Shown: positions 42,837-64,000, numbered from the stretch's first letter. The stretch is DNA of 64,000 bases from Gemmatimonadales bacterium (GCA_041613315.1 JBFJHJ010000009.1:1-64000), one strand, 5' to 3'. The notes: generated by a model from the letters alone, not told the origin. A program made the numbers and translations.

Positions 42837-44057
42837 TCACCGCCGCACCCGCTGGAGGGTCAAGCCGTACTCCGCGTTGATCGCGTCGATGACGTGGTCC
42901 GCGACCAGTTGGTGCGTCGCGGCGCTGGGGTGGAACCCGTCCCGGCTGAAGAAGGTCCCGAACGGCGCCGTGACGCTGAGCGACGACGGTGGGACGTTCG
43001 GGAACAACGGGATTTGGCCGGCCTGCCGGAGCGAATCGAGGACCGGGTTGGGATCCAGATACGCCCAACCGTTGTCGGCGGCGGCGGCGGCGATCGTCTG
43101 GTTGTACGACGCGACCGCTCCACCGATCGTGAGCAGCTCGGCGCCCGTCAGGACGGGCGCGTCGTTCACGCAATCAAGCGTGACCGCCGCGCCGCCCGCC
43201 GCGGCCGCGAAGAGCACGCCGAAGCCGTAGCCGAAGGGCACGAGCGTCGTCTCCCCCACGCCGCCGAAGGCCGCGGGCGCGCAGTTGTTGCTCACCGCGA
43301 ACGTCGGCGGCCACCCGGGCGCCATGGACGCCTGCCAGTAGGCGGCTCCGGGGGAGAGGTGGGGAATACTGGTCACGTTGCCGACCCCGATCAGCACGGC
43401 GCCCTGGAGCGGCAGGGCCGCGAGCGCGTCGACCATCGCGTCATACCGGGTGGCGAAGACGTCGGTCGGCGTGACCAGGCCCACGTTACCGCTCAGCGCG
43501 GCTCCGAGGACGTCGTTGTTGCCGATCCATACCGTTGCGAACGTCGGGTCAACGGCCGCCGCGGCCTCGAGTTGCGTGCGGCCGCCCAGGAAGAACGTCG
43601 TTAAGGCATTGGCGCCGCTCGCAGGATCCAAGTTGTTCAGCACGTCGATCACGGCGGCGCCCGGTACGGCGACGTTATTGAGAAACGTGGGCACGGGCGC
43701 CTTGCGGAGGGCGCAAGGCGGGGCGGCGGCACCGCCCACGCGCTCCAGTGTGAAGATGTTCACGATCGGTGGCGGGCATCCGGGTGCGCTCAACAGCGGG
43801 ACGTTGAACTCCGATCCGAGGCTCAGGCCGAAGGCGCCGGCCAGGAACACCGGGTAGGCCTGAAGCTGTGTGCTGTCGTTGATCCCGCCGGACTGGAACC
43901 CGGCCGTGATGCTGTTGCCGATCGCGACGTAGCGGACGAACATGTCGTTCGTGGCGGTGGGCGGCGTGAGCTCGTCGTTGCTGCACGCCCCGAGCAGTGG
44001 GATGGCGGCGGCGAGGCACAGGAGAAGCGCTCGGCTCCGTATCGGGCGACGCGTCAT
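42837..44057 (-). CDS. SGNH/GDSL lipase-like lipoprotein
   Basis: Lipobox LLGAC; GNSITAG, NVAVPG, IGNND, DGFHP; RBS GAGGA before ATG 44057. Confidence 0.88.
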   Translation of the reverse strand: MTRRPIRSRALLLCLAAAIPLLGACSNDELTPPTATNDMFVRYVAIGNSITAGFQSGGINDSTQLQAYPVFLAGAFGLSLGSEFNVPLLSAPGCPPPIVNIFTLERVGGAAAPPCALRKAPVPTFLNNVAVPGAAVIDVLNNLDPASGANALTTFFLGGRTQLEAAAAVDPTFATVWIGNNDVLGAALSGNVGLVTPTDVFATRYDAMVDALAALPLQGAVLIGVGNVTSIPHLSPGAAYWQASMAPGWPPTFAVSNNCAPAAFGGVGETTLVPFGYGFGVLFAAAAGGAAVTLDCVNDAPVLTGAELLTIGGAVASYNQTIAAAAADNGWAYLDPNPVLDSLRQAGQIPLFPNVPPSSLSVTAPFGTFFSRDGFHPSAATHQLVADHVIDAINAEYGLTLQRVRR

Positions 44058-44092
44058 GGCGCGATCCTCAATCGGTCGGTTCGTCGTGCGCA

Positions 44093-45484
44093 TTAGAAGT
44101 GCACGGTGAGCGTGGCGCCCACGAGGTTGGCGTTGAACGAGTAGAGACCGCTGTTGAGGGCCGTCGTCGGCAACTGGCCCGGGAGCGGGTCCCGGACCCG
44201 CCCGCGGCGCTTGTCCTGCCGGATGTATTGATACGCCACGTCGATCGAGAACCGGGGGCTCACGGCGAGGCCGACGCCGCCGGTGAACTCGTTGCGCGCC
44301 GACTCGGGCAGCAGCGGCGTGACCGTCTGGTCCGGCGCCGCCGCCTGATGGTAGAGGTACCCCCCGCGCAACGTCCACCGGTCGTCCGCCGCCCAATCGA
44401 ACCCGACTCGGAACCCCCATGTGTCCTCGTAGTCTTCCCGGATGACCCGGTCCGGTGTCAGTTGATTGGCGAAGTCGATCGTGATCGCTTCGAACACGGA
44501 CCAGTTCATCCACTGCGCGTCGGCCAGGAGCATGAGCGCCGGCGTCGCGTTGACCGCGATCCCCACCTGGAGCTGATCCGGCATCGTGATGCTGGTCGTG
44601 GCGGTGCCGTTTGCGAGCGCGGTGAAGACGCCCGCGCCCTGGAGCACCTGGTCGAGCGTCGTGCCGGCCGGAGCCCCGAACGGGTTGCCGGCCGGTAACA
44701 CGATGCCGGTGGCCACCGCCGCAAACGTGGCGTCGCCCTCATAGTCCAGCGTGACGCGGGTGAGGTAGCGGGCTCCGAGGCTGAAGCGCTCGTTGGGCGT
44801 GAGCAGCACGCCGAAGTGTCCCCCGAAGCCCGTCGCGCCCGTGGCCTTGAGCCGGGCGTTCGCGAAGTCGGTATGGAACGGGATGCCCAGCTGGCCGAGC
44901 GTCGTCCCAAGTGGTGCCGGGGGTGGCGCCGGGAGCTCCCACGCGTCCAGCCGCTGGTTCAACTCGACCGACCCGATCACGATGTCGAAGCCCGCGCCCA
45001 CGGCGATCTTGGGATGTGGCTTCCACGACAGGGTCGGCTGGATGTAGAACGACTGCAGGTCGTTGTCATAGCCGCTGAAGCGCCCCTCGAACGTGGTCGG
45101 CCACCGGGTGCCGAGGCCGTAGGGCACGAAGAGGCCGACGCCCGCCGCCCATTGCGCGTTGATCCCATAAGTCGCGTACACGTGGGGGACGGGAATGAGG
45201 CTGTTGGTGAGGTCGGTGGTCTGACCCGTCAGATCGTCCGTGAAGTCGCCGAAGGCGTCGATCACAGTCAGGCCGGCGCTCACGGTCCAGCCCCCCATGC
45301 CCGCCAGGCCGGCGGGGTTGTACAGCACGGCCGAGCCGTCAGGGCACGGCGCGGCGGTCCCGGTGCCGGCGCGGCCCATCTGGCAGGTGCCGTGCTCGTT
45401 GACGGCAAAGCCCTGCGCGGCGATCGGGGGTGACGTGACGAAGAGCGCCGCGCTGGCGAGGCCCGCGCACAACGGAAGTCGCAT
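44093..45484 (-). CDS. OmpP1/FadL family outer-membrane transporter
   Basis: Signal peptide, MGRAG...YNPAG hatch motif, PYGLGT.W, terminal F. Confidence 0.9.
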   Translation of the reverse strand: MRLPLCAGLASAALFVTSPPIAAQGFAVNEHGTCQMGRAGTGTAAPCPDGSAVLYNPAGLAGMGGWTVSAGLTVIDAFGDFTDDLTGQTTDLTNSLIPVPHVYATYGINAQWAAGVGLFVPYGLGTRWPTTFEGRFSGYDNDLQSFYIQPTLSWKPHPKIAVGAGFDIVIGSVELNQRLDAWELPAPPPAPLGTTLGQLGIPFHTDFANARLKATGATGFGGHFGVLLTPNERFSLGARYLTRVTLDYEGDATFAAVATGIVLPAGNPFGAPAGTTLDQVLQGAGVFTALANGTATTSITMPDQLQVGIAVNATPALMLLADAQWMNWSVFEAITIDFANQLTPDRVIREDYEDTWGFRVGFDWAADDRWTLRGGYLYHQAAAPDQTVTPLLPESARNEFTGGVGLAVSPRFSIDVAYQYIRQDKRRGRVRDPLPGQLPTTALNSGLYSFNANLVGATLTVHF

Positions 45485-45518
45485 GTGATGCTCCGAGCGG
45501 TTGAGGTGCACGTGAGCG

Positions 45519-52904: not shown

Positions 52905-53840
52905 CTACGGGCCGTTGTGACGCCCCGGGTCGCCTTCGAGCAGTTCCAGCAGGTCTTTGGCGAAGAGCGACGTGAACTCGATCGCCATCTCGAAATGGTC
53001 TTCGAGGACGTCCAGAAACGGTTCGAGGTCGATGCGGAGCCCGACCACCGGTCCGTCGGCGACGGCGTCATACCACCGGAGTGCGGTGGCCAGCGTTTCG
53101 TGCATCCCGAGCGTCGTCGTCGGGCCGCCGCCAAAGGGGCGCGCCAGCTCGCCCGCCGAACACGAGACCGCGCCGCCCGCGATCAGCAAGAACCACGTGG
53201 CGGGCTCGTCGCGACGCCAGGCGGCCTCGCCCGCGGCGTAGCGCAGCTCCACGACGTGCCGCGCCAACTCCGACAGCGCGTCCACGCTGCTCGAGGGGAA
53301 CGCCGGCGCGCCGCGCAGCGCCAGAAGGCGCTCCACCAGGTTGAGCCGACGCTGGCCGGGCGGTAGCGTGCGCCCTTCCGCCGGTCCCAACCGCTGAGCC
53401 GTCGGCCGCCGCCTGAACTCCCCGAGCAGTCGTTCGGCGAGATAGCGCACGTACTGGAGCAGGATGGGGAAGTGCTGCTCGCAAATGTCGAGCTGCGCCT
53501 CCCAATCCAGCCGGAGCGCCAAGGTATCCGCGTCCGCCCGGGCCTCGATCCCGCGGGCCGCCTGGGCGAGCAGGTGGTGGAATCCCACGGCGTCTCCCGG
53601 TCCCGCCTCTTGCGCGCTCCGGCCGAGTCGCGTGACCGTGACCCGCCCATCGATCACGAGATAGAAGGCCTCCGCAGGCCATTCGGGTCGCAGCAGGTAG
53701 TTGCCGCGCGGGAAGAACTGTTCCTGCGCGTGCTGGGCGATCGTGCCGAGCTGGGTCGGTGTCAGCCGATCGAGCGCCGGCATCGTCCGGAAATGGAGGA
53801 TCCGGTCGAGGGGCCCCACAAAGACGGTGCGTTCAGGCAT
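52905..53840 (-). CDS. Tandem cyclic-nucleotide-binding domain protein
   Basis: Two cNMP-like repeats (FYLVIDGRV...GPGDAVG; FLLIAGGAV...TLG); no HTH; overlaps the upstream transporter gene. Confidence 0.8.
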   Translation of the reverse strand: MPERTVFVGPLDRILHFRTMPALDRLTPTQLGTIAQHAQEQFFPRGNYLLRPEWPAEAFYLVIDGRVTVTRLGRSAQEAGPGDAVGFHHLLAQAARGIEARADADTLALRLDWEAQLDICEQHFPILLQYVRYLAERLLGEFRRRPTAQRLGPAEGRTLPPGQRRLNLVERLLALRGAPAFPSSSVDALSELARHVVELRYAAGEAAWRRDEPATWFLLIAGGAVSCSAGELARPFGGGPTTTLGMHETLATALRWYDAVADGPVVGLRIDLEPFLDVLEDHFEMAIEFTSLFAKDLLELLEGDPGRHNGP

Positions 53841-56616
53841 CGAGCGCGCTCCCGAGAGGCGGGCCGCCGAGCGCGGTGGAGGCGAAGGCTAAGATCTCGG
53901 CGTGATCGTCGGAGAGCGCCAATCGACGGCGGAGGAGGGGCTCCATCCCATCCAACCCCAGCTCGGCAACGTGATATGCGGCCAGACTGCTGAGGGACTC
54001 GGTCGTGCTCCCGACGAGTTCCGCCAGCACCGTCTCGTACGCGTCGAGCTCGACGTCCTCGCCGCCCCGGAGCGCCGCGCCGCGTGGCTCGTAGAGATCG
54101 TCAATCAGCGTCAAGAGCGGTTCCCGCACGGGCGCGAACACCAGGTGTTCGAGTAGCTCGCGGCTGCTCGCCCGCGATTCGCGGCGTGGGCTGTTGAGCC
54201 CGCGATAAATGTGGAGGAAGTCCTCGTTGTCTGCCTCCAGATTGAGGAGGCGGAAGAGGCGCTCCAGGGCATGGTTTTGTTTGTCGCGCAGCAGGAGGAT
54301 CAGCAACTCGTACACGGCGGTGCGCCGTCCCGGGTGCGTCGTGGCACCGTGCTCCATCGCGTGGCGCCAGCGCATGAATCGGAACGCGACGGCCAGCGTC
54401 TGCTTGCTCGCCTGGGCCAGGAGTCCGGTATCGAGGGGCAAGGCGGGCTGCTCCTGTCGGAGACGGCCAAGGGACCGGAGGATCTTGAAGCGAATCATGC
54501 CGTCGGGCTCGTGGAGCAAGTGTTTCACGAGGAGATCGGCCGCGGCCACGGTCGCAAACGTGGCGATCGCGCGGGGCAGGTGCCGGCGGATGCCGTGCGA
54601 GAGGTTGTGATCCTTGAGCCCCGTGCCGAGCCGAGCGAGCGCGGTCGGCCCCAGCGCCGCTAACGTGGTGCGCGCCTCGTCGCGCAGGACGCGTTCCGCC
54701 AGCATGGTGACCAGGACCGGGATGAACGTGGGGCTCCGCACCTCGCGCATCGCGCGCACGGCCTCCAGCCGCACGTCGACTTCGCCACGGGCCGCGAGGG
54801 CACGGAGCGCGCCTTCGAAGACGGCCGCCGGCTGATGGCGCACGGCTTGGGCCAGCGCGAGGCGGGCCTCGGCGGAGCCCTCGCTGACGATGCGTTGCAG
54901 GGCGGCCTCCGCCTGCGCGCGGCCCAGCCAGCCGCCGGCGATGAGCCCTACCAGGGCCGTCGCCCGGACCTCCGCGGCGCGGTCGCGCAGGCCGCCGCGC
55001 AAGCGGCCTTCGTCGGGCGCGAGCACGGACTGGAGTCGCAGACTGCCGGCGCGTATCTGCGGGTTGGGATGGTTCAGGAGCCGATCTACGATCGGCAGGA
55101 CGTCGAGCCGTCCCGAGCGGATGAACAGCTCGAGCGCGTGTACGACGACCGGCGGCGAGGGGTGGTACAGAATGAGCGCCGGGATCACTCGCACTTTCCC
55201 CTGTGCGGTCAGCATGTCCAACGCTGCCATCACCTGACGGTCGTGGGGGGCGTTGAGCGTGCTGAGCAGGGTCTCGAGTGACGCGATGTCCAGCGCCGGG
55301 AACTCGATCCGGGTCTCGGTGATCTCCTCACTCAGCGTCTCGCGGAAGACGTCGAGATAGTGCGTCCGCAGATCGAGGGCGAAGAACAGCCATACCGCCG
55401 CGGTGAGCGAGGCCATCCCGGCAAACACGACCTCCCGGGTGGTGGCCGCGAGGGTGATCAAGATGAGCAACGACGCCAACGCCTGGCCGCCGCGCTGGCC
55501 GAGAACGTCGATGAACGCCTTCACGCGCGCGCGGAGCTCCGGCGCCATGGGCACGAAGAGCAGCTCGGTGCCCGTGCGGTGGAGCGAGTGCCGCAGGCTG
55601 CCGTCCACGCCTTTGAGGAGGAGCACCACCGCGAGGGTGCCCGCGATCACGAAGCCCACCGCGCCGAGGAGCAAGAGTGCCGGCGCGAATGCCACGGCGA
55701 TGTTCACGCCGAGGCGGCGGATCAACCACGCGACGATGAAGACCTGCACCCCCAGGGACAGCACGTTCAGCGTCAGATACACGCTCGCGAAGAATTCGCC
55801 CAGCTCGCCCGGCGCCACCAGCCGCGCCACGGTCATCTTGAACACGAAGTCCACGAGCGTGAACGTCACCGTCGCCAGGAGGACGAGGATCGCCACGCGG
55901 CGCAGGTACGGCCGAGACCAGACGATCTGTCCCACACGGGTCACGTCCCATCTCACCGCGGTGGTCGCACCGGGTTCGGCGGACGGGCCGCCGCTCAAGA
56001 GCCGCGGGCCCCACGACGCCACGAGGAACACGGCGGCGGCGGCGAGCACCACGTACTGCGCCGCAACCAGGCCGGTGAGGAGCCGCGCGATCGCGGAGCC
56101 GACGATCGCCCCCATCACGCTCCCCGACCCGATCACCGCAAAGACCCGCTTGGCTTGCGTCAGCGTGAAGAGACTGCCCAGGACGGTCCAAAAGCGCACC
56201 ACCACCAGCGTCGCGAGCACGCCCGACCAGGTGTAGAGCGCATAGAACACCCAGTCGCCCGCCCAGCCCACGAGCAGCCAGAAGCCGAACGTGATCACCG
56301 CCGACACGATGAGCCAGGCGCTGAGCTCGTGGCGATGCGCGAAGCGCCGCAGGATACGTGGTTGCCGCTCGGTGAGCGCGAGCGCCACGACGGCGATGGC
56401 GAGATAGACCCAGGGGAGTTGCGACGCCGGGAGCCTCGCGAGAAAGAGTGCGTCGCGGGCCGTCTCGAGCAGGGCGTGCCCGGCCATGAACCCGAACAGC
56501 GTGAGAAACGCCCCGAGGGCGTCTCGCCGCTCATCAGGGCGGATCCGGGCGACCGACCCCAAGATCCGTGCCGAGAGCATGTTGACGACGACCGAGTTTC
56601 TTGCCCTGGCGGTCAC
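53833..56616 (-). CDS. NTT/TLC (Npt1/Npt2-like) MFS transporter fused to HEAT repeats
   Basis: LETARDALFL, FW...AKRVFAVIG.G, SLRHSLHR..ELLFVP, KAFID...RGG, about 12 TMs, then HEAT-like helices; start may be 56580. Confidence 0.85.
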   Translation of the reverse strand: MTARARNSVVVNMLSARILGSVARIRPDERRDALGAFLTLFGFMAGHALLETARDALFLARLPASQLPWVYLAIAVVALALTERQPRILRRFAHRHELSAWLIVSAVITFGFWLLVGWAGDWVFYALYTWSGVLATLVVVRFWTVLGSLFTLTQAKRVFAVIGSGSVMGAIVGSAIARLLTGLVAAQYVVLAAAAVFLVASWGPRLLSGGPSAEPGATTAVRWDVTRVGQIVWSRPYLRRVAILVLLATVTFTLVDFVFKMTVARLVAPGELGEFFASVYLTLNVLSLGVQVFIVAWLIRRLGVNIAVAFAPALLLLGAVGFVIAGTLAVVLLLKGVDGSLRHSLHRTGTELLFVPMAPELRARVKAFIDVLGQRGGQALASLLILITLAATTREVVFAGMASLTAAVWLFFALDLRTHYLDVFRETLSEEITETRIEFPALDIASLETLLSTLNAPHDRQVMAALDMLTAQGKVRVIPALILYHPSPPVVVHALELFIRSGRLDVLPIVDRLLNHPNPQIRAGSLRLQSVLAPDEGRLRGGLRDRAAEVRATALVGLIAGGWLGRAQAEAALQRIVSEGSAEARLALAQAVRHQPAAVFEGALRALAARGEVDVRLEAVRAMREVRSPTFIPVLVTMLAERVLRDEARTTLAALGPTALARLGTGLKDHNLSHGIRRHLPRAIATFATVAAADLLVKHLLHEPDGMIRFKILRSLGRLRQEQPALPLDTGLLAQASKQTLAVAFRFMRWRHAMEHGATTHPGRRTAVYELLILLLRDKQNHALERLFRLLNLEADNEDFLHIYRGLNSPRRESRASSRELLEHLVFAPVREPLLTLIDDLYEPRGAALRGGEDVELDAYETVLAELVGSTTESLSSLAAYHVAELGLDGMEPLLRRRLALSDDHAEILAFASTALGGPPLGSALDA

Positions 56617-56847
56617 GGGTTTCCTAACACGTTGGCGGACTTCACGTTATACTTCGTGGCGATCGTCTGATCGCGCTGGTCGCCCGGGCGGGCGCCAGGA
56701 GACACGTTCTTGCACTCTGACAAGATGCCGACCGGGCGGCGCGAAACTGTGATCTTTGCCGATACCTGGAAGTCCAGATTCCTTGTATGTTATCGCCAGA
56801 GGCCGTCCCGGTTTCAGGGGGGGCCCCTTTTTCGTTACGGACGACCA

Positions 56848-59781
56848 ATGCCACGTTTGCTCACGACTGCCTGGGTGGTACTCCTGCTGGCGGCCCCTGC
56901 CATCCGCGCCGCGGCCCAGAGCTTCCCCCCGCCGCTCACCGACGCCGAGATCCGAGAGGTCACGAGCGCCATCGAGGCGATGAAGGCCGACGCCCGGGGG
57001 CCCTACCTCCGGATCCGGTGGTTCTGCAATGACGGGAGCGTCGAGCCCCCCCAGGGCACCCCCTGCCGCGAGCGGGGTGGTGGCGTGCAGTACGCCGAGT
57101 TCAACGAGCGGGCCCGGCGTCTGGCCGAGCTCAATTTCCACGTGGGGACGATTCTCCAGGCCGTCACGTTCGAGGACCTCTTCGACTCGGCGCAGGCCCA
57201 CTATCGCCTGCGCGAGCTCATAGTCGCGAAGTACCTGTTCGACGTGGACGACGGCTGGGCGCTCCGCCAGGCACAATTCTATCGCGGCGCCCGGCAGATC
57301 GAAGACGAAGAGCGGACGGGGCACGCGCTGCTGGAAGGGCTGCTCGGGCGGCCCGAGTGGACCGCCGCGCACTATCTGTTGGCCGTCCGGCTCGTGGCCA
57401 CGATCCCGCACGTGACACTGGGCGGTGACCAGCTCACGTACCGTATTCGGAATCTGGCGACGGAAGCCGCCGAGCTCGACCAGAGCTTCCTGCCAGTGCG
57501 GGTCAAGATCCACTCGTTCCCCTCGCGCGAGGACCTCGAGGCGGTCGAGCGGCATCTCGCCTCCGTGACGGCGCCGGCGGTGCGCGCGAAGCTCACCGAG
57601 TTGCGCGACGAGCTCCGCCGGCAGTACGACCCGCGGCGCAATCTCGAGAGCCTGGCCCAGTACCGGCGGCGGCTGCGGGGTACGCTGGGAGACGAACTGG
57701 CGGCGCTCGAGCGGAGCTTCGCGCAGGGGGACCAGCGGGGTGCGTTCGCGCAGATCGCCGGGCTGGCGCCGAAGATCCGCCAGCTCGTGACCACGGGCCG
57801 CGACGGCCGCGTCAACCTCGTGCTGATGGATCTGGGCCTTGCGCTGCAGGAGCAAGCGTTCCTGCTCGCGCAGGACCTCGTGCGCGAGCCGGGGCCGACG
57901 AGTCGCAGCGAACGCCTGCGGCGGCTCTCGGACTACCTCGCCATCGCCCACGGCGCCGGGTTCCTGTCGGCCCGCGAACGTGACGCGCTGGACCGCGAAA
58001 TCGCGCGGCTGCGGACGGAGGTGCCGCCAACGGCCCTCGAGTACAAGACCGCGCTCGGCTACCTCGGCCGGAGTCTCGACTGGTCGGCGGGGACGGTTCG
58101 GAGCTACTTCGGGCCGGTGATCCAGCGCTACCTGCCGGTGGCGCCCAAGGTCGTGGGATTCCCCGACGCCGTCATGCGCGGCTCGGTGCTGCTGCCCCTC
58201 TCCCAGGCGCTCGACGTCCTGGATACCGACGCCGATCGCGTGCTGGGTGCTTCCCACGAGATCTTCGGGCAGCGGGTCAGCCAGGGGGTCCGTGGACTCA
58301 ACCCTGGAGTCGTCCGCCGCCCGCTGGAGATCCTGGAGCCCGAGCGTGCGCACGCGGCGGTCGAGCCCACGAAAATCTACGTGGTGCCGGCAACGACGCC
58401 CGAGCTCAAACCCGTGGCCGGCGTGCTGACGCTCGATGCCGGCAACCTCCTGTCCCACGTGCAGCTGCTCGCCCGCAACCTCGGCATCCCAAATGCGTCC
58501 GTGTCGTCGTCGCTGCTGCCGGTCCTGCGCTCGGCCCGCGGCACCGAGGTGTTCTACGCCGTCTCGCCACTCGGCCGCGTTTTCCTCAAGCGGCCGGGGG
58601 AGATGACGCCGGAGGACGAAGGGTTGCTCGACGGCGGGCGCGACGTCAAGATCGAGAAGATCCGTCTCGACACCTCGCGGCTCCGGCTTGATCGGACGGC
58701 GCCGCTCCCGCTGTCGGAGCTTCGGGCGGACCTGTCCGGCGTGTACGTCGGGCCGAAGGCGGCGAATCTCGGGCAGCTCGCGGCGTACTTCCCGAGCCGC
58801 GTCTCGCGTGGCGTCGCGCTGCCCTTCGGGATGTTCGTCCGCCACGCGAACCGCCCCTTCGGGTCGGACCGGCCGATGCTCGAGGATTTGGAAGCGGCGT
58901 ACCGCCACGCGGCGGCGATGCGGGCGGCCGGGATGTCCGAGGAGGAGATCGATCGGTACATGTTCCGGGAGCTGGCCCGCGTGCGGAAGGCGATCCTCGA
59001 CCTGCCCTGGCTGCCCGACGTCCGTGACGCGGTCGTCGATGCGGTACGCGTGACGTTCGGTGGCGATCTCTCGGGCGGTGTGTTTGTGCGCAGCGACACC
59101 AATGTCGAGGACCTGCCGCAGTTTTCCGGCGCGGGGCTCAACCTCACCGTCCCCCACCAACGAACGCTCGAAGACGTGCTGGCGTCCATCAAGCGCGTGT
59201 GGACCTCGCCGTTCAGCGAGCGGGCGTATCTGTGGCGCAAGCAGATTCTGGAGGAACAGGGGCGGATCTACCCGTCGGTGCTCCTGCTCGAGAGCGTCCC
59301 GTCGGAGAAGTCGGGCGTGATGATCACGTCGGGCCTCCAGTTCGGCGATTCGGACGATCTGACGATCGCCACCGCCGAAGGCGTGGGTGGCGCGGTGGAA
59401 GGCGAGGAGGCCGAGATGATCGTCGTCGACTCGGCGGGCACGGTGACGCTGCTGTCCCAGGCCAAGGCGCCGGTGCGGCGGGTGCTCGTGGACCGTGGGG
59501 TGGCGACGGTGGTGGGGCGGCTGCCGGACGTCCTGCTGCGCCAGGCGGACATCGCCACGCTGCGGGCGGTGGCGGCCGAATGGCAGGCGCGCTTCGCCCC
59601 GGGCGATGCGTCGCAAGTGTGGGACATCGAATTCGGGTTCGTCGGGGACACGCTATGGCTATTCCAGATTCGACCGTTCGTGCGGTTCCGGAGCAGCGCC
59701 CTCCTGACGCGGTTGCAGGTGCTGGATCGCGACGTCCTGGAGCGAGCGGACCGACGGGTCGCGCTGGTGGAGCGGATCTGA
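56848..59781 (+). CDS. Exported PEP-utilising dikinase-family protein (phospho-His domain + C-terminal PPDK-type ATP-grasp)
   Basis: Signal peptide MPRLLTTAWVVLLLAAPAIRAAA|Q; LLSHVQLLARN; GPKAANL; VRSDTNVEDLPQFSGAGL; WDIEF; FQIRP. Confidence 0.85.
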   Translation: MPRLLTTAWVVLLLAAPAIRAAAQSFPPPLTDAEIREVTSAIEAMKADARGPYLRIRWFCNDGSVEPPQGTPCRERGGGVQYAEFNERARRLAELNFHVGTILQAVTFEDLFDSAQAHYRLRELIVAKYLFDVDDGWALRQAQFYRGARQIEDEERTGHALLEGLLGRPEWTAAHYLLAVRLVATIPHVTLGGDQLTYRIRNLATEAAELDQSFLPVRVKIHSFPSREDLEAVERHLASVTAPAVRAKLTELRDELRRQYDPRRNLESLAQYRRRLRGTLGDELAALERSFAQGDQRGAFAQIAGLAPKIRQLVTTGRDGRVNLVLMDLGLALQEQAFLLAQDLVREPGPTSRSERLRRLSDYLAIAHGAGFLSARERDALDREIARLRTEVPPTALEYKTALGYLGRSLDWSAGTVRSYFGPVIQRYLPVAPKVVGFPDAVMRGSVLLPLSQALDVLDTDADRVLGASHEIFGQRVSQGVRGLNPGVVRRPLEILEPERAHAAVEPTKIYVVPATTPELKPVAGVLTLDAGNLLSHVQLLARNLGIPNASVSSSLLPVLRSARGTEVFYAVSPLGRVFLKRPGEMTPEDEGLLDGGRDVKIEKIRLDTSRLRLDRTAPLPLSELRADLSGVYVGPKAANLGQLAAYFPSRVSRGVALPFGMFVRHANRPFGSDRPMLEDLEAAYRHAAAMRAAGMSEEEIDRYMFRELARVRKAILDLPWLPDVRDAVVDAVRVTFGGDLSGGVFVRSDTNVEDLPQFSGAGLNLTVPHQRTLEDVLASIKRVWTSPFSERAYLWRKQILEEQGRIYPSVLLLESVPSEKSGVMITSGLQFGDSDDLTIATAEGVGGAVEGEEAEMIVVDSAGTVTLLSQAKAPVRRVLVDRGVATVVGRLPDVLLRQADIATLRAVAAEWQARFAPGDASQVWDIEFGFVGDTLWLFQIRPFVRFRSSALLTRLQVLDRDVLERADRRVALVERI

Positions 59782-61073
59782 TGATGGCCTCCCGCGGGAC
59801 GCGCTGGCTCGCGTGTGCGCTGCTCGGGCTCGTGGCCGTGGGCGCCGCCCCGTCGGGGCCGTATCCGTTGGACGGGTACGAGCACACCGGCATCCGCCGG
59901 CTCGAAGCGTTCCGTCTCATGCGGGCCGGACAGATCCGGGGATCGCTGCGGCTCCCCCCCGGAGCGTTGCTGCCCTCGGAGGCGATCCGGCTGCGCATGG
60001 CGGGCTTCGATGAGACCTTCGATATTCTGCCGGACACGCCCAAGGACCCGGAGCTCCAGGCGGCGCTGCTCAGCATCGTGGCCGCGCGGGATACCTCCTA
60101 CCGGGTGGCCCTGCTCGACATCACCGACCCGGCACAGCCGCGGTACGCCGCGGTCCGGGAGAGCGAGGGCTACATCCCCGGCAGCGTCGGGAAGCTCTTG
60201 GTGATGACTGGATTGTTCCACGAGTTGGCCAAGCGTTTCCCCTCGGACATCGCCGCACGGGCGCGGTTGCTCCGCGACACGCGGATCGTGGCGGACCGGT
60301 GGGTGCTGCCCAACAGCCATCAGATCCCGGTCGTGAACGAGGACATGACCGCGGTGACCTACCGCGCCGTGCGCGTTGGGGACGAGTTCACCCTGTGGGA
60401 ATGGGTCGACCACATGATCTCGCCCAGCTCCAACGCCGCCGGTTCGCTGGTGTGGAAACAGGTCATGTTGATGGACGCGTTCGGTACCGCCTATCCACCG
60501 TCGGCGGCGGCGGAGGAGGCGTTTTTCCGCGATACGCGGAAGCCGGAGCTGACCGCCCGGTCCCTTCGGGTCCTGGAGGATCCGCTCCTCGCGCTCGGAC
60601 TCGACACGGCGCAGCTCCGTCTAGGCACGTTCTTCACGCGCACGGCGTCCCGCATCGTTCCCGGCCAGGCGAGCTCGTCGACGCCCCGCGAGCTGGTCCG
60701 CTGGCTCTTGAAGCTGGAGCAGGGGAAGGTCGTGGACCGGTGGAGCAGTCTCGAGATGAAGAGGCTCATGTACTTCACGCGGCGCCGGTACCGCTACGCC
60801 TCATCGCCTGCCCTGGCGGACGCCGCCGTATACTTCAAGTCGGGCTCCCTGTACCAATGCCGCCCGGAGCCCGATTATCAATGCGGGCAATACCGGGGCA
60901 ACGCTACGAACCTCATGCACTCGGTGGCGATCGTCGAGTCACCGGCGTCCGGCGACCGCCAGCGCGTGTATCTGATCTCGATGATGTCGAACGTGCTCAA
61001 GGTGAACTCCGCGGCAGAGCACCTGGAGATCGCGACGCAGATCGAACAGCTGCTCCAGCGGCTGCACCCGTGA
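59781..61073 (+). CDS. Exported serine hydrolase, class A beta-lactamase/PBP fold
   Basis: Signal peptide; SVGK, SSN, KSG; start overlaps the dikinase stop. Confidence 0.85.
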   Translation: MMASRGTRWLACALLGLVAVGAAPSGPYPLDGYEHTGIRRLEAFRLMRAGQIRGSLRLPPGALLPSEAIRLRMAGFDETFDILPDTPKDPELQAALLSIVAARDTSYRVALLDITDPAQPRYAAVRESEGYIPGSVGKLLVMTGLFHELAKRFPSDIAARARLLRDTRIVADRWVLPNSHQIPVVNEDMTAVTYRAVRVGDEFTLWEWVDHMISPSSNAAGSLVWKQVMLMDAFGTAYPPSAAAEEAFFRDTRKPELTARSLRVLEDPLLALGLDTAQLRLGTFFTRTASRIVPGQASSSTPRELVRWLLKLEQGKVVDRWSSLEMKRLMYFTRRRYRYASSPALADAAVYFKSGSLYQCRPEPDYQCGQYRGNATNLMHSVAIVESPASGDRQRVYLISMMSNVLKVNSAAEHLEIATQIEQLLQRLHP

Positions 61074-61116
61074 GTGGGCCGGGGCGATCCGTAACCGCGA
61101 CCGTCAGGACCACGGT

Positions 61117-62094
61117 ATGAGAGGAGTAGACCGCCATATGATGCGATCGGTCGGTGGGCTGCTGATACTATCGGCGTGCGCCGGCGGCTTGATCGGGCTC
61201 CCGCCGGCCGGGCAGGTGGCCGCGCAGAGCGCGGCGAGCCCAACCCTCGTGCTCCCCGCGGCGGACCCGGTGTTGCAGGCGGAGCTCAACCGGGTGCTCG
61301 CCGAGCCGCCGTTCCGGAGCCTCATGGCCCGGAAGCGCCTGTCCGTGGCGCTCGTGGACCTGTCGGATTCGGGCGGGATCCGCTACGCGGCGGTGGACGA
61401 CAACCGCATGCGCTACGCCGCGAGCCTGCCGAAGATCGCCATCATGCTGGGCGTCTTCGACCAGATCGACCGGGGAAAACTCGAGTACACGCCGGAGCTG
61501 CGGGCCAAGATGGAGCTGATGATCCGGCGGTCGGACAACTACGTGTCTACGCAGCTCATTCAGCTGGTCGGGTTCCAGGCCATCGCGAACACGCTCCGGG
61601 ACCCGCGCTATCAGCTGTACGACCGGAGCCGCTCCGGCGGTCTGTGGGTTGGCCGCGACTACGGGGGCGGTCCCGGCCTGTGGCGCCGGGATCCGATCCA
61701 CAAGATCTCGCACGGCGCCACGGCCCGGCAGGTCGCGCGCTACTTCGTGATGCTCGATCAGGGGCGGCTGGTCAGTCCGTGGGCGTCGAGCGAGATGAAG
61801 AGCATCATGGCCCACCCCGAGATTCATCATAAGTTCGTGCTCGGGCTCGACAGCCGGCCCCCGTCGAACATCTTCCGCAAGTCGGGGACGTGGAAGAGCT
61901 GGCACGCCGACGCCGCCCTGGTGGAACGGGACGGCAAGCGCTACGTGGCCGTGGCGCTACTGGAAGCACCGGGCTCCGGGGGGGTGCTGTCGCGCCTCAT
62001 CGTGAGGCTCGATGACCTGATCCATGGGCCCTCGCCGGTGCCGATGGCACCGGCGAACGTGCCGACCGAGGAGCAGCAACCGCCGGCACAGTGA
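61117..62094 (+). CDS. Exported serine hydrolase, class A beta-lactamase/PBP fold
   Basis: Signal peptide; SLPK, SDN, KSG. Confidence 0.88.
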   Translation: MRGVDRHMMRSVGGLLILSACAGGLIGLPPAGQVAAQSAASPTLVLPAADPVLQAELNRVLAEPPFRSLMARKRLSVALVDLSDSGGIRYAAVDDNRMRYAASLPKIAIMLGVFDQIDRGKLEYTPELRAKMELMIRRSDNYVSTQLIQLVGFQAIANTLRDPRYQLYDRSRSGGLWVGRDYGGGPGLWRRDPIHKISHGATARQVARYFVMLDQGRLVSPWASSEMKSIMAHPEIHHKFVLGLDSRPPSNIFRKSGTWKSWHADAALVERDGKRYVAVALLEAPGSGGVLSRLIVRLDDLIHGPSPVPMAPANVPTEEQQPPAQ

Positions 62095-62777
62095 CCGAGC
62101 GGCGCGCGCTCCTCGCCGGCGCCACCGGGCTCGTGGGCGGCTACGGCCTCGACGAGCTCCTCGGCTCGAATCGCTACGCCACCATCACGGCCCTCACGAG
62201 ACGCCCGCTCGAGCGACGCCATCACACATTGCGGGAAGTGACGGCCGACTTCGACCGTCTCGACACCCTCGGCGACCGGCTCGCGGCCGACGACGTGTTC
62301 TGCTGCCTCGGCACCACGATCCGACGGGCCGGATCGCCGGACGCCTTCCGCCGGGTCGATTTCGACTATCCGCTCGCGCTGGCCCGGGCCGCTCGCCTCC
62401 ACGGCACCGTCCAGTTCGTGATCGTGTCGTCGCTGGGCGCGGATCCCGACGCGCGCACCTTCTATCTGCGGGTGAAGGGCGAACTCGAGCGCGCCCTGAG
62501 CGAGGTCGGCATGCGCACGCTCGTCGTCGTCCGGCCCTCCCTTCTCCTGGGCTCGCGGCGCGAATCGCGCCCCGCCGAGGCCGTCGGCAAACTCGTGCTG
62601 TCGGCAGTCGCGCCCCTCTTGGTCGGGCGGCTGGCCCGGTATCGGCCGATCCACGCGCGGGATGTCGCGCGGGCGATGGTGCAGCTCGCGGCGCGTGGCC
62701 TCACCGGTCTTCACACGTTCGAGTCCGACGAGCTGCGCGCGCTCGCCCGGCACACGGGGGCGCCCCCGTCGGGCTAG
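62091..62777 (+). CDS. Atypical SDR NAD(P)-binding protein (YraR/TIP30-like)
   Basis: GATGLVG, CCLGTT, VSSLGA, YLRVK, RPSLLLG. Confidence 0.88.
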   Translation: MTERRALLAGATGLVGGYGLDELLGSNRYATITALTRRPLERRHHTLREVTADFDRLDTLGDRLAADDVFCCLGTTIRRAGSPDAFRRVDFDYPLALARAARLHGTVQFVIVSSLGADPDARTFYLRVKGELERALSEVGMRTLVVVRPSLLLGSRRESRPAEAVGKLVLSAVAPLLVGRLARYRPIHARDVARAMVQLAARGLTGLHTFESDELRALARHTGAPPSG

Positions 62778-62896: not shown

Positions 62897-63412
62897 ATGG
62901 AGCCGCTCGTGCGCCGGGCGCAGGTGGGCGATGCGCACGCCTTCGAGGAGCTGTACCGGCGCTCGGCGGGCCGCGTGTACGCGCTGTGCCTCCGGCTGAC
63001 GGGCGACGCGGTGCGCGCCGAAGAGCTGACGCAGGACGTGTTCGTGCGGTGCTGGGAGCGGCTGCGCTCGTTCCGGGGGGACAGCGCCTTCGCCTCCTGG
63101 CTGCATCGGCTGGCCGTCAACGTGGTGTTGATGGCGGCGCGGTCCGAGCGGCGTCGGGAGCGTCGCGTGACGCCGGCGGGTGATCCCGCCGAGCTCGAGG
63201 GTTCTGGGCACGTGACCGATCCGGGGACGCGGCTCGATCTTGAGGCGGCGATCCGCCGGCTGCCGCCCGGGGCGCGCGAGGTGTTCGTGCTCCATGACGT
63301 GGAGGGGTACGGCCATGCGGAAATCGCCGACGTCGCGGGCATCGCGACCGGCACGTCAAAGGCCCAGCTGCATCGTGCGCGGCGCTTGTTGAGGGAGATG
63401 CTCCAGCGATGA
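62897..63412 (+). CDS. ECF RNA polymerase sigma factor
   Basis: AFEELY, AEELTQDVF, FASWLHRLAVN, HDVEGY, GTSKAQLHRAR. Confidence 0.93.
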   Translation: MEPLVRRAQVGDAHAFEELYRRSAGRVYALCLRLTGDAVRAEELTQDVFVRCWERLRSFRGDSAFASWLHRLAVNVVLMAARSERRRERRVTPAGDPAELEGSGHVTDPGTRLDLEAAIRRLPPGAREVFVLHDVEGYGHAEIADVAGIATGTSKAQLHRARRLLREMLQR

Positions 63413-64000
63413 GCCACGGCGAGATCCGTGAACGGCTCGACGACTACGTGGACGGGTGTCTGACTCCCGAGCGGCAGGCGGTCATCGAGGCGCATCTGGC
63501 CGACTGCGAAGACTGCCGTCGGGAAGTGGATTTCCTGCGGCCCCTTCTGGCGGAGGCACGGACGCTGCCGCCGAGCCTCGAGCCGCCGACGGATCTCTGG
63601 GGGTCCATCCAGCAGCGGATCGGGAGGCGCCGCGTCCGCGACCACACCCTGTGGTCGGTTCGTTACCAGTTGGCGGCCGCCGCCATGGCGCTGCTCTTGC
63701 TCGGATCCCTCCTCACGGTGCTGCTCCTGCGACCTGAACCGGTGAAGGTGATCGCCACGGCCCCCGCCGTGGCCGCCGTGCCGGGCTTCCCCGCCGGCTG
63801 GCGCGAGACCGAAGACAGTTACCGGCGCGCCGCGGCCGATCTGGAAGAAGCGCTGGCCGGGGCGAAGCCACGGCTCGCCCCGGCAACCGTGGCGGTGCTG
63901 GAGCGGAACCTCCGCATTATCGACGACGCCATTGCCGAGGCCCGCGCCGCGCTCGCGGCTGACCCGGCGAACCGGGAGGTGCTCGAGATGTTGGCCGACA
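63409..64000 (+). CDS. Zinc-binding (ZAS/zf-HC2) anti-sigma factor, 3'-truncated by window edge
   Basis: Read directly: MSHGEIRERLDDYVDG...AHLADCEDC, then a TM helix; ATGA overlap with the sigma gene; absent from ORF track because it has no stop. Confidence 0.88.
   Translation, partial: MSHGEIRERLDDYVDGCLTPERQAVIEAHLADCEDCRREVDFLRPLLAEARTLPPSLEPPTDLWGSIQQRIGRRRVRDHTLWSVRYQLAAAAMALLLLGSLLTVLLLRPEPVKVIATAPAVAAVPGFPAGWRETEDSYRRAAADLEEALAGAKPRLAPATVAVLERNLRIIDDAIAEARAALAADPANREVLEMLAD

Follow-up and report, generated by a model that had tools for sequence, protein, structure and literature searches.

A four-gene unit of a predicted exported dikinase, two PBP-like serine enzymes and an NTT-family carrier in diverse bacteria, and its possible role in periplasmic phosphorylation

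Plastid NTT1 supplies ATP to a compartment holding a glycan-phosphorylating dikinase (GWD/PWD), and in GWD an acceptor domain is followed by a His domain and a C-terminal ATP-grasp domain. A bacterial arrangement with analogous elements is found in a 64,000-nucleotide stretch of DNA from a Gemmatimonadales bacterium (GCA_041613315.1 JBFJHJ010000009.1:1-64000, hereafter the window), in which a dikinase with a predicted signal peptide (DK) is encoded together with two predicted exported serine enzymes (S1 and S2) and a carrier of the NTT/TLC family fused to HEAT repeats (NTT-HEAT). The conserved unit consists of these four genes, DK, S1, S2 and NTT. According to the accessible text of Major et al. 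(2017; PMC5381601), NTT-HEAT(-cNBD) proteins are widespread and uncharacterised, an NTT-HEAT gene followed by a separate cNBD gene occurs, and the role of NTT and NTT-HEAT in free-living bacteria is open; that text does not connect these proteins with exported enzymes and suggests that they serve uptake or supply from cell to cell. Entry of ATP to the periplasm is likewise stated to be open in the available part of another paper, where Gram-negative bacteria are said to be without an ATP/ADP translocase for it (PMC7432876). The parts of the present unit come from known superfamilies, and in the literature searched, in which most subscription journals were not covered, neither a description of the module nor a counterpart of the whole system was found, in agreement with an earlier note on this DNA that knew of no described pathway of the kind. 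We regard the module as real, conserved and undescribed in that literature, with a mechanism that is partly inferred.

The open-reading-frame calls agree with the six genes, strands and junctions given in the earlier note, and Pfam confirms every label: a cNMP-binding-fold protein and NTT-HEAT on the minus strand, then DK, S1, S2 and a short-chain dehydrogenase/reductase (SDR) gene on the plus strand. NTT-HEAT (53833..56616, minus strand; 927 residues from a GTG) matches TLC (E 1e-9) and HEAT_2 (E 3e-9). A divergent spacer (56617..56844) separates it from DK and measures 228 bp if NTT starts at GTG 56616, or 264 bp if it starts at ATG 56580. DK (56845..59781, plus strand; 978 residues) overlaps S1 (59781..61073, plus strand; 430 residues) by 1 bp, and S2 (61117..62094, plus strand; 325 residues) follows after a gap of 43 bp. 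The GC content of the locus is like that of its flanks; no conserved DNA motif was found among five spacers compared, and promoter and terminator counts are near shuffle levels. Because the same divergent layout occurs in a relative at 47-74% identity (G013) and in four further loci (L019, L021, L022 and L025), the linkage of the window's genes exceeds chance. The layout is found in five of eight other Gemmatimonadota loci, while two end at DK and one has another NTT downstream.

The four genes recur together far beyond this lineage. Conservation of the adjacency of the two gene sets had been set as a refutation test of the original proposal, and the adjacency and co-inheritance of DK, S1, S2 and NTT across phyla bear it out. 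Among 101 DK loci (80 from GTDB genomes, G013 and 20 from Gammaproteobacteria), S1 lies near DK in 95, S2 in 79 and NTT in 67, and in the 54 non-acidobacterial loci of at least 16 kb the counts are 52, 49 and 48, respectively, with profiles for S1, S2 and NTT that were built in part from the counted loci. These loci span, in many gene orders, Bacteroidota, Ignavibacteriota, Calditrichota, KSB1, Latescibacterota, Desulfobacterota, Gamma- and Zetaproteobacteria, Acidobacteriota and Gemmatimonadota. No fifth recurring gene and no neighbour naming a substrate was found in the 81 + 20 loci; ABC ATPases in 13 of them are heterogeneous, and Lon with pyruvate kinase in four gammaproteobacterial loci looks like local synteny.

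Genome tallies give the same picture, to be read as patterns and not as probabilities because the genomes are kin and the counts overstate independence. Fisher tests on them are given no weight for that reason. In 201 Flavobacteriaceae genomes, DK is present in 46, and S1, S2 and a 940-residue NTT-HEAT in 45 each, the same 45; the lone exception (G169) has a DK cut at a contig end, and 155 genomes have none of these genes, six of the DK-less genomes having a different, single-domain NTT. DK and NTT lie within 10 kb of each other in 40 of the 46 genomes, and broken clusters keep all of the genes, as DK-S1 and S2-NTT (G240), DK-S1-S2 and NTT alone (G201), or NTT-S1 and S2-NTT-DK (G107). Furthermore, in 300 Gammaproteobacteria (a set that includes the unpublished G307 and G530 and one unscored genome), NTT is present in 25/25 DK genomes (24/24 without G307) versus 42/275 others, and within 11 kb of DK in 21 of the 25. 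Of nine genomes with a long DK among 151 Acidobacteriota, eight give an NTT match at E<=1e-25 and one a weak match, against a background of 64/151 that includes the unpublished G618. Taken with the adjacency, these patterns make us nearly certain that DK, S1, S2 and NTT act together.

DK starts with a predicted Sec signal peptide of 23 residues with Ala-Ala-Ala at its end (56845..56913, plus strand), which is followed by a mostly helical N-domain (residues 24-470; 56914..58254), a His swivel domain and a C-terminal ATP-grasp (PPDK_N) domain (residues 616-952; 58690..59700). Pfam places PPDK_N (PF01326) at residues 635-947 (E 2e-23) and a PEP-utilizer mobile domain at 514-549. H538 (58456..58458), the predicted phospho-accepting histidine, lines up with the His motif of phosphoenolpyruvate (PEP) synthase and marks DK as a member of the PEP-utilising His-dikinase superfamily; it is present in 144/144 aligned homologs, in which K638, R749, E755, E929, Q941 and R943 of the ATP-grasp are also invariant, and all dikinase catalytic residues are intact. 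Signal-like leaders, called by a simple hydrophobicity rule that is a heuristic and not SignalP, occur in 197 of 211 normal-length DK proteins (203/226 of all) versus 70/1055 internal windows, and the same rule finds them in 52/52 S1 and 44/49 S2. The predicted mature DK N-termini begin directly behind Ala-x-Ala, and a C61/C74 pair is kept in 143/144 homologs. The exported dikinase proposed in the earlier note therefore stands as a prediction with family-wide leaders, and with high confidence DK would be extracytoplasmic and active.

The N-domain of about 450 residues sets DK apart. In an AlphaFold model of DK the predicted local distance difference test (pLDDT) averages 91.6, and the N-domain folded alone reaches 95.1; nevertheless no solved fold matched it in Foldseek at E<=0.001, the best match in a VIA structure search was to generic helical bundles (Z 10.5), and an Atlas search returned only unnamed clusters with scores <0.9. 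Five residues, W59, W138, Q151, E155 and H223, are invariant in the 144 aligned homologs, and together with C61/C74 they presumably mark the acceptor-binding site. The acceptor domain may thus be new, although a missing match is no proof of a new fold. The DK family counts at least 4289 proteins at E<=1e-30 among 7999 scored candidates, and 346 clusters at 50% identity, a number at the same threshold that may take in other dikinases. The closest named relatives are Gemmatimonadota, yet full-length DK was found in only 1/60 relatives searched and in 2/37 genomes of the window's own family, a patchy distribution. No extra domains were found in long DKs. In a relative from the same order (L003, G048:C88:14037-14960), an open frame of 965 codons resembles DK in the C-terminal ATP-grasp alone, possibly another dikinase architecture, and a divergent long DK (L165:674-3700, G595; 35% identity, altered N-domain motif) is possibly a subfamily with another acceptor; its 10.5-kb contig carries no S1, S2 or NTT.

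Comparison with described dikinases shows likenesses and differences. The ATP-grasp of DK superposes on that of the rifampin phosphotransferase Rph (5hv1; Z 34.5, root-mean-square deviation 1.9, 309 residues aligned), and DK has this fold (Z 25.6 for HpeI, 9goj) and the swivelling phospho-His in common with Rph, HpeI, PEP synthase and PigC/RedH; these enzymes, however, are cytoplasmic with an N-terminal ATP-grasp, whereas that of DK is C-terminal and accompanied by an unrelated acceptor domain. Its database label is "PEP synthase", but PEP synthase and PPDK are rejected by the position of the ATP-grasp, by a model without a barrel and by 79 bits against cut-offs of 598-883. Rph itself is rejected since the domain order differs, NF041857 gives 45.7 bits versus 999, and the match covers only residues 616-952; indeed, all NCBIfam scores of DK are far below cut-off. 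The domain order is that of GWD, but assignment to GWD/PWD by the His domain fails (PF22973, 14.3 bits vs a cut-off of 27, E 0.047). For the acceptor domain, no GWD chain appeared among the structure-search matches with which to compare it. DK differs from GWD/PWD in being bacterial, in lacking a carbohydrate-binding module, and in having a Sec-type leader and linkage to two PBP-like enzymes.

S1 and S2, labelled in databases as serine hydrolase or beta-lactamase, match Pfam Beta-lactamase2 (E 8e-8 and 1e-18, respectively) and carry the SxxK, SxN and KTG-type motifs of the acyl-serine PBP/beta-lactamase superfamily: S135xxK138, S216xN218 and K353SG are invariant in 52/52 S1, and S103xxK106, S139xN141 and K255SG in 49/49 S2. 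Among solved structures PBP-A (2j7v, E 9e-6) alone is related to S2, and none to S1 at E<=0.01. According to the accessible text of PMC11189452, PBP-A (Tll2115, Thermosynechococcus elongatus) is a DD-carboxy/endopeptidase with selectivity for muropeptides that are amidated. S2 resembles it in the class-A-like fold, the three motifs and the hydrophobic residue at the E166 position, and differs in that the similarity is remote, that it does not extend to S1, and that no dikinase or carrier partner is described for PBP-A. S2 position 194, aligned to L158 of PBP-A and to the omega-loop E166 of class A enzymes, is I, L, M or V in 49/49, and S1 has no invariant Glu in this region. With a hydrophobic residue at the E166-equivalent in all 49 S2, these are not class A beta-lactamases.

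The carrier part of the window's NTT-HEAT comprises about 430 residues with nine hydrophobic segments in a crude scan, and belongs to the NTT/TLC family by PF03219 (37.7 bits vs a cut-off of 21), TIGR00769 scoring below cut-off. Its likeness to the NTT/TLC antiporters is a family likeness by profile: phmmer against AtNTT1 (9j3j) gives E 9e-6, and a profile of module NTTs matches the solved NTT1 carriers 9j3n and 9j3j at E 4e-40 and 5e-33. In a tree of 99 NTT domains, made by a quick method with SH-aLRT support and with long-branch warnings for the window's clade, the NTTs beside DK fall into five or more supported clades, some fused to HEAT and others single-domain, and many modules carry a bare NTT of 420-450 residues without HEAT or cNMP. 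Since NTTs of all these clades adjoin DK, it is the carrier domain that has been conserved rather than the HEAT or cNMP parts. Accessible parts of two papers report that K155, E245, E385 and K527 of AtNTT1 matter for transport (PMC4256464, PMC10654386), and one of them links K527 to triphosphate transport (PMC4256464). When these positions were mapped by eye from a HMMER alignment (chain offset 84), the window's carrier showed Y71, G132, D256 and Q378, or one marker of four, only the E385-equivalent being kept, and the single-domain module clade showed W, D, E/D and K, or three of four (n=21; K527-equivalent K in 20 and R in one, acidic E245- and E385-equivalents in 21/21 each). Nucleotide exchange by module NTTs is likely by family membership, and ATP export is inferred on evidence that lies on both sides, with the least support for the window's own carrier.

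From these parts a mechanism can tentatively be proposed, which we hold to be the likeliest single reading, though at somewhat less than even odds, and in which NTT-fed phosphorylation takes place in the periplasm on a wall substrate, probably peptidoglycan. NTT in the inner membrane would exchange cytoplasmic ATP for spent AMP or ADP; the ATP-grasp of DK, its residues being intact, would pass phosphate to His538 by dikinase-family chemistry; and His538 would swivel to an acceptor in the N-domain, yielding X-O-P, AMP and Pi. In the last and weakest step, the acceptor would be a polymer of the cell wall or a piece of one, with a peptidoglycan hydroxyl as the likeliest site, and S1 and S2 would be enzymes of DD-peptidase-like kind reserved for the wall so modified, in the way that PBP-A serves amidated stems. 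HEAT and cNMP parts would be lineage-specific accessories. Of the single steps, supply of nucleotide to DK by NTT, counting nucleotide export in any form, is rather probable, and for an acceptor in the wall or envelope, which the PBP-A relationship and the GWD-like domain order suggest, the balance tips slightly in favour.

Several observations weigh against this mechanism. A sister family of dikinases of about 635 residues, in which the leader is signal-like, His and ATP-grasp are both intact and the N-domain differs from that of DK and spans about 170 residues (L155:5697-7595, L156-L164 and L167-L246), has no NTT, S1 or S2 in 90/90 loci, 47 of them at least 10 kb long, although these loci hold closely related sequences; and no NTT was found in 9/10 sister-dikinase genomes. 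An exported dikinase, therefore, needs no NTT. Acidobacterial DK loci have no nearby NTT either (0/19), although in 5/5 such genomes NTTs lie elsewhere. At the K527 position stands Q in the window's clade (5/5) and T or S in the Bacteroidota clade (36/36), and NTT substrates are not predictable from sequence according to the accessible text of PMC6995639. No gene, domain or fold naming the acceptor was found across the DK loci and searches, and the kinship of the genomes noted above applies to every tally.

The same facts feed the first alternative, that DK uses periplasmic ATP from another route and that NTT salvages or senses AMP, ADP or the product, HEAT and cNMP parts relaying the signal. 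Two of the three main module clades lack the K527-equivalent, the sister dikinases do without NTT, some ATP is present in the periplasm of E. coli without any translocase, by a route that the available part of PMC7432876 leaves open, and other NTT-HEAT-cNMP genes lie amid Ser/Thr kinases, His kinases and response regulators. Against it, the fused form gives way in Gamma-, Delta- and Zetaproteobacteria to bare single-domain NTTs that keep the triphosphate lysine, and one antiporter cycle would do both export and salvage; we hold this alternative unlikely, if one to be reckoned with.

The close tie of DK and S1, which stands nearly always directly behind DK and often overlaps it, so that the two are nearly inseparable (95/101 loci), raises another possibility, an NTT-fed ligase: DK would activate a carboxylate, such as a stem-peptide terminus, as acyl-phosphate, the S1 serine would transfer the acyl group to an amine, and S2 would edit. 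The acyl-serine triad of S1 is intact, yet the protein is too divergent for any solved PBP match, and dikinase-fold ligases (PigC/RedH) were matched at E 4e-14 and 7e-12. However, the closest structures, Rph, HpeI and PEP synthase, are generally known to phosphorylate hydroxyl or enol groups, DK and S1 lie apart in G107 and L091, and no credible DK-S1 fusion was found, the two singletons (P0456 and P0457) being mosaics with missing blocks that are likely frameshift or assembly artefacts. A ligase is accordingly improbable.

The Rph match, the best structural one of the ATP-grasp, together with the class-A fold of S1 and S2 and the patchy distribution in the window's own family, would also suit a periplasmic detoxification, in which a natural antibiotic would be inactivated ahead of entry through the joint action of an Rph-like phosphotransferase and enzymes of beta-lactamase type; but the DK N-domain does not match the substrate domain of Rph, S2 is without the E166 base, and no recurring mobile-element or resistance neighbours were found in the DK loci, which leaves this reading quite improbable. 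The reverse system, in which DK makes periplasmic ATP from AMP and a high-energy donor for import by NTT, accords with the import of ATP by characterised NTTs (accessible text of PMC5381601). PEP-synthase-type reactions are, besides, generally known to be reversible; but no periplasmic donor is evident, DK is without a PEP-binding barrel and the two PBP-like enzymes are left without an explained role, and we hold it very improbable. A cytoplasmic or membrane-anchored, inward-facing DK that needs no periplasmic ATP could appeal to the simplicity of the hydrophobicity rule on which localisation rests, but is hardly credible beside the excess of leaders over background, the conserved cysteine pair and the mature N-termini behind Ala-x-Ala.

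NTT-fed periplasmic phosphorylation may have a second case. In three Acidobacteria a single-domain NTT adjoins an operon of Omp85, a 540-residue signal-peptide protein and a metallophosphoesterase (L112:8229-13745, L110:8284-15242 and L109:4356-9395). The 540-residue protein has HipA/Fam20C-like kinase motifs and at least 4244 homologs but no Pfam family; it had no PDB match, and weak HipA_2 matches appeared in only 3/25, so that its kinase label rests on motifs and on Atlas neighbours at 0.80-0.81. Of 42 genes for this family in the 151 Acidobacteriota, 10 have an NTT within 10 kb (in 8 of 29 genomes, with the seed counted), against a chance expectation roughly estimated at 0.4 genes, and NTT is present in 24/29 genomes with the gene (G618 among them) versus 40/122 others. 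As a lead, this operon might represent another system in which NTT supplies an exported kinase. A generalisation, in which the NTTs of free-living diderms are dedicated ATP exporters that power a so far hidden group of ATP-dependent enzymes in the periplasm, driving in this module the O-phosphorylation of peptidoglycan by a GWD-like dikinase, a mark that two DD-peptidases read, with an unrelated HipA/Fam20C-like case in Acidobacteriota, is doubtful at present.

The other genes of the locus are not parts of the core. The cNMP protein (52905..53840, minus strand; 311 residues, overlapping NTT-HEAT by 8 bp) has a tandem cNMP-binding fold (Pfam cNMP_binding x2, E 5e-15). Canonical phosphate-binding cassettes have a Gly-Glu and an Arg; the Glu after Gly is absent from both domains in 3/3 sequences, and domain 1 also varies at the Arg. 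By tblastn the gene occurs in 4/101 DK loci, with one more, fused, in L091, and stands as a separate gene behind NTT only in L015, L022 and L025. Judged from these sequences, it is a split-off C-terminal partner of the window's NTT-HEAT clade with an apparently degenerate cassette, lineage-specific and not core. The SDR/epimerase-like gene (62091..62777, plus strand; Pfam Epimerase/NAD_binding) overlaps S2 by 4 bp and is co-transcribed in the window, but has a counterpart in 0/101 DK loci (tblastn). The cyclic-nucleotide control that the earlier note had inferred is hence not supported, the SDR is no part of the conserved system, and both genes are ruled out as core parts by their occurrence.

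Some further observations concern the neighbourhood and the carriers elsewhere. Directly downstream of the module (window 62900-64000) follow an ECF-sigma-like open reading frame and a zf-HC2 anti-sigma-like gene (63409-), and a tblastn query with the latter found no counterpart in DK loci. At 42837-45511 of the window lie genes which we take, from inspection and recall, to encode a FadL/OmpP1-like outer-membrane protein and then an SGNH-like lipoprotein. NTT-HEAT(+cNMP) genes unlinked to DK stand amid His kinases, response regulators or adenylate/guanylate cyclase (L106-L108 and L131), and such genes away from DK suggest that one branch of the family works in signalling. A second NTT of 720-830 residues with a short HEAT region (L071:16617-19118, with a STAS domain; L136, L141, L146 and L149) often adjoins the single-domain NTT in gammaproteobacterial modules, and its acidobacterial relatives adjoin MscS or Ser/Thr kinase genes. 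In DK-less Flavobacteriaceae (L121:7498-9716, L122 and L123), an aldo/keto reductase whose leader is Tat-like is linked with a single-domain NTT, a pairing that possibly provides an exported redox enzyme with NAD(P).

The labels "PEP synthase" and "beta-lactamase", under which these proteins stand, can mislead metabolic and resistance annotation, and the present analysis defines a large dikinase family with an acceptor domain that may be new. Furthermore, the module ties the questions of periplasmic ATP supply and of NTT(-HEAT) function to one four-gene unit, which makes both directly testable, and this unit is present in the cultured, non-pathogenic Flavobacteriaceae Formosa, Flagellimonas and Arenibacter.

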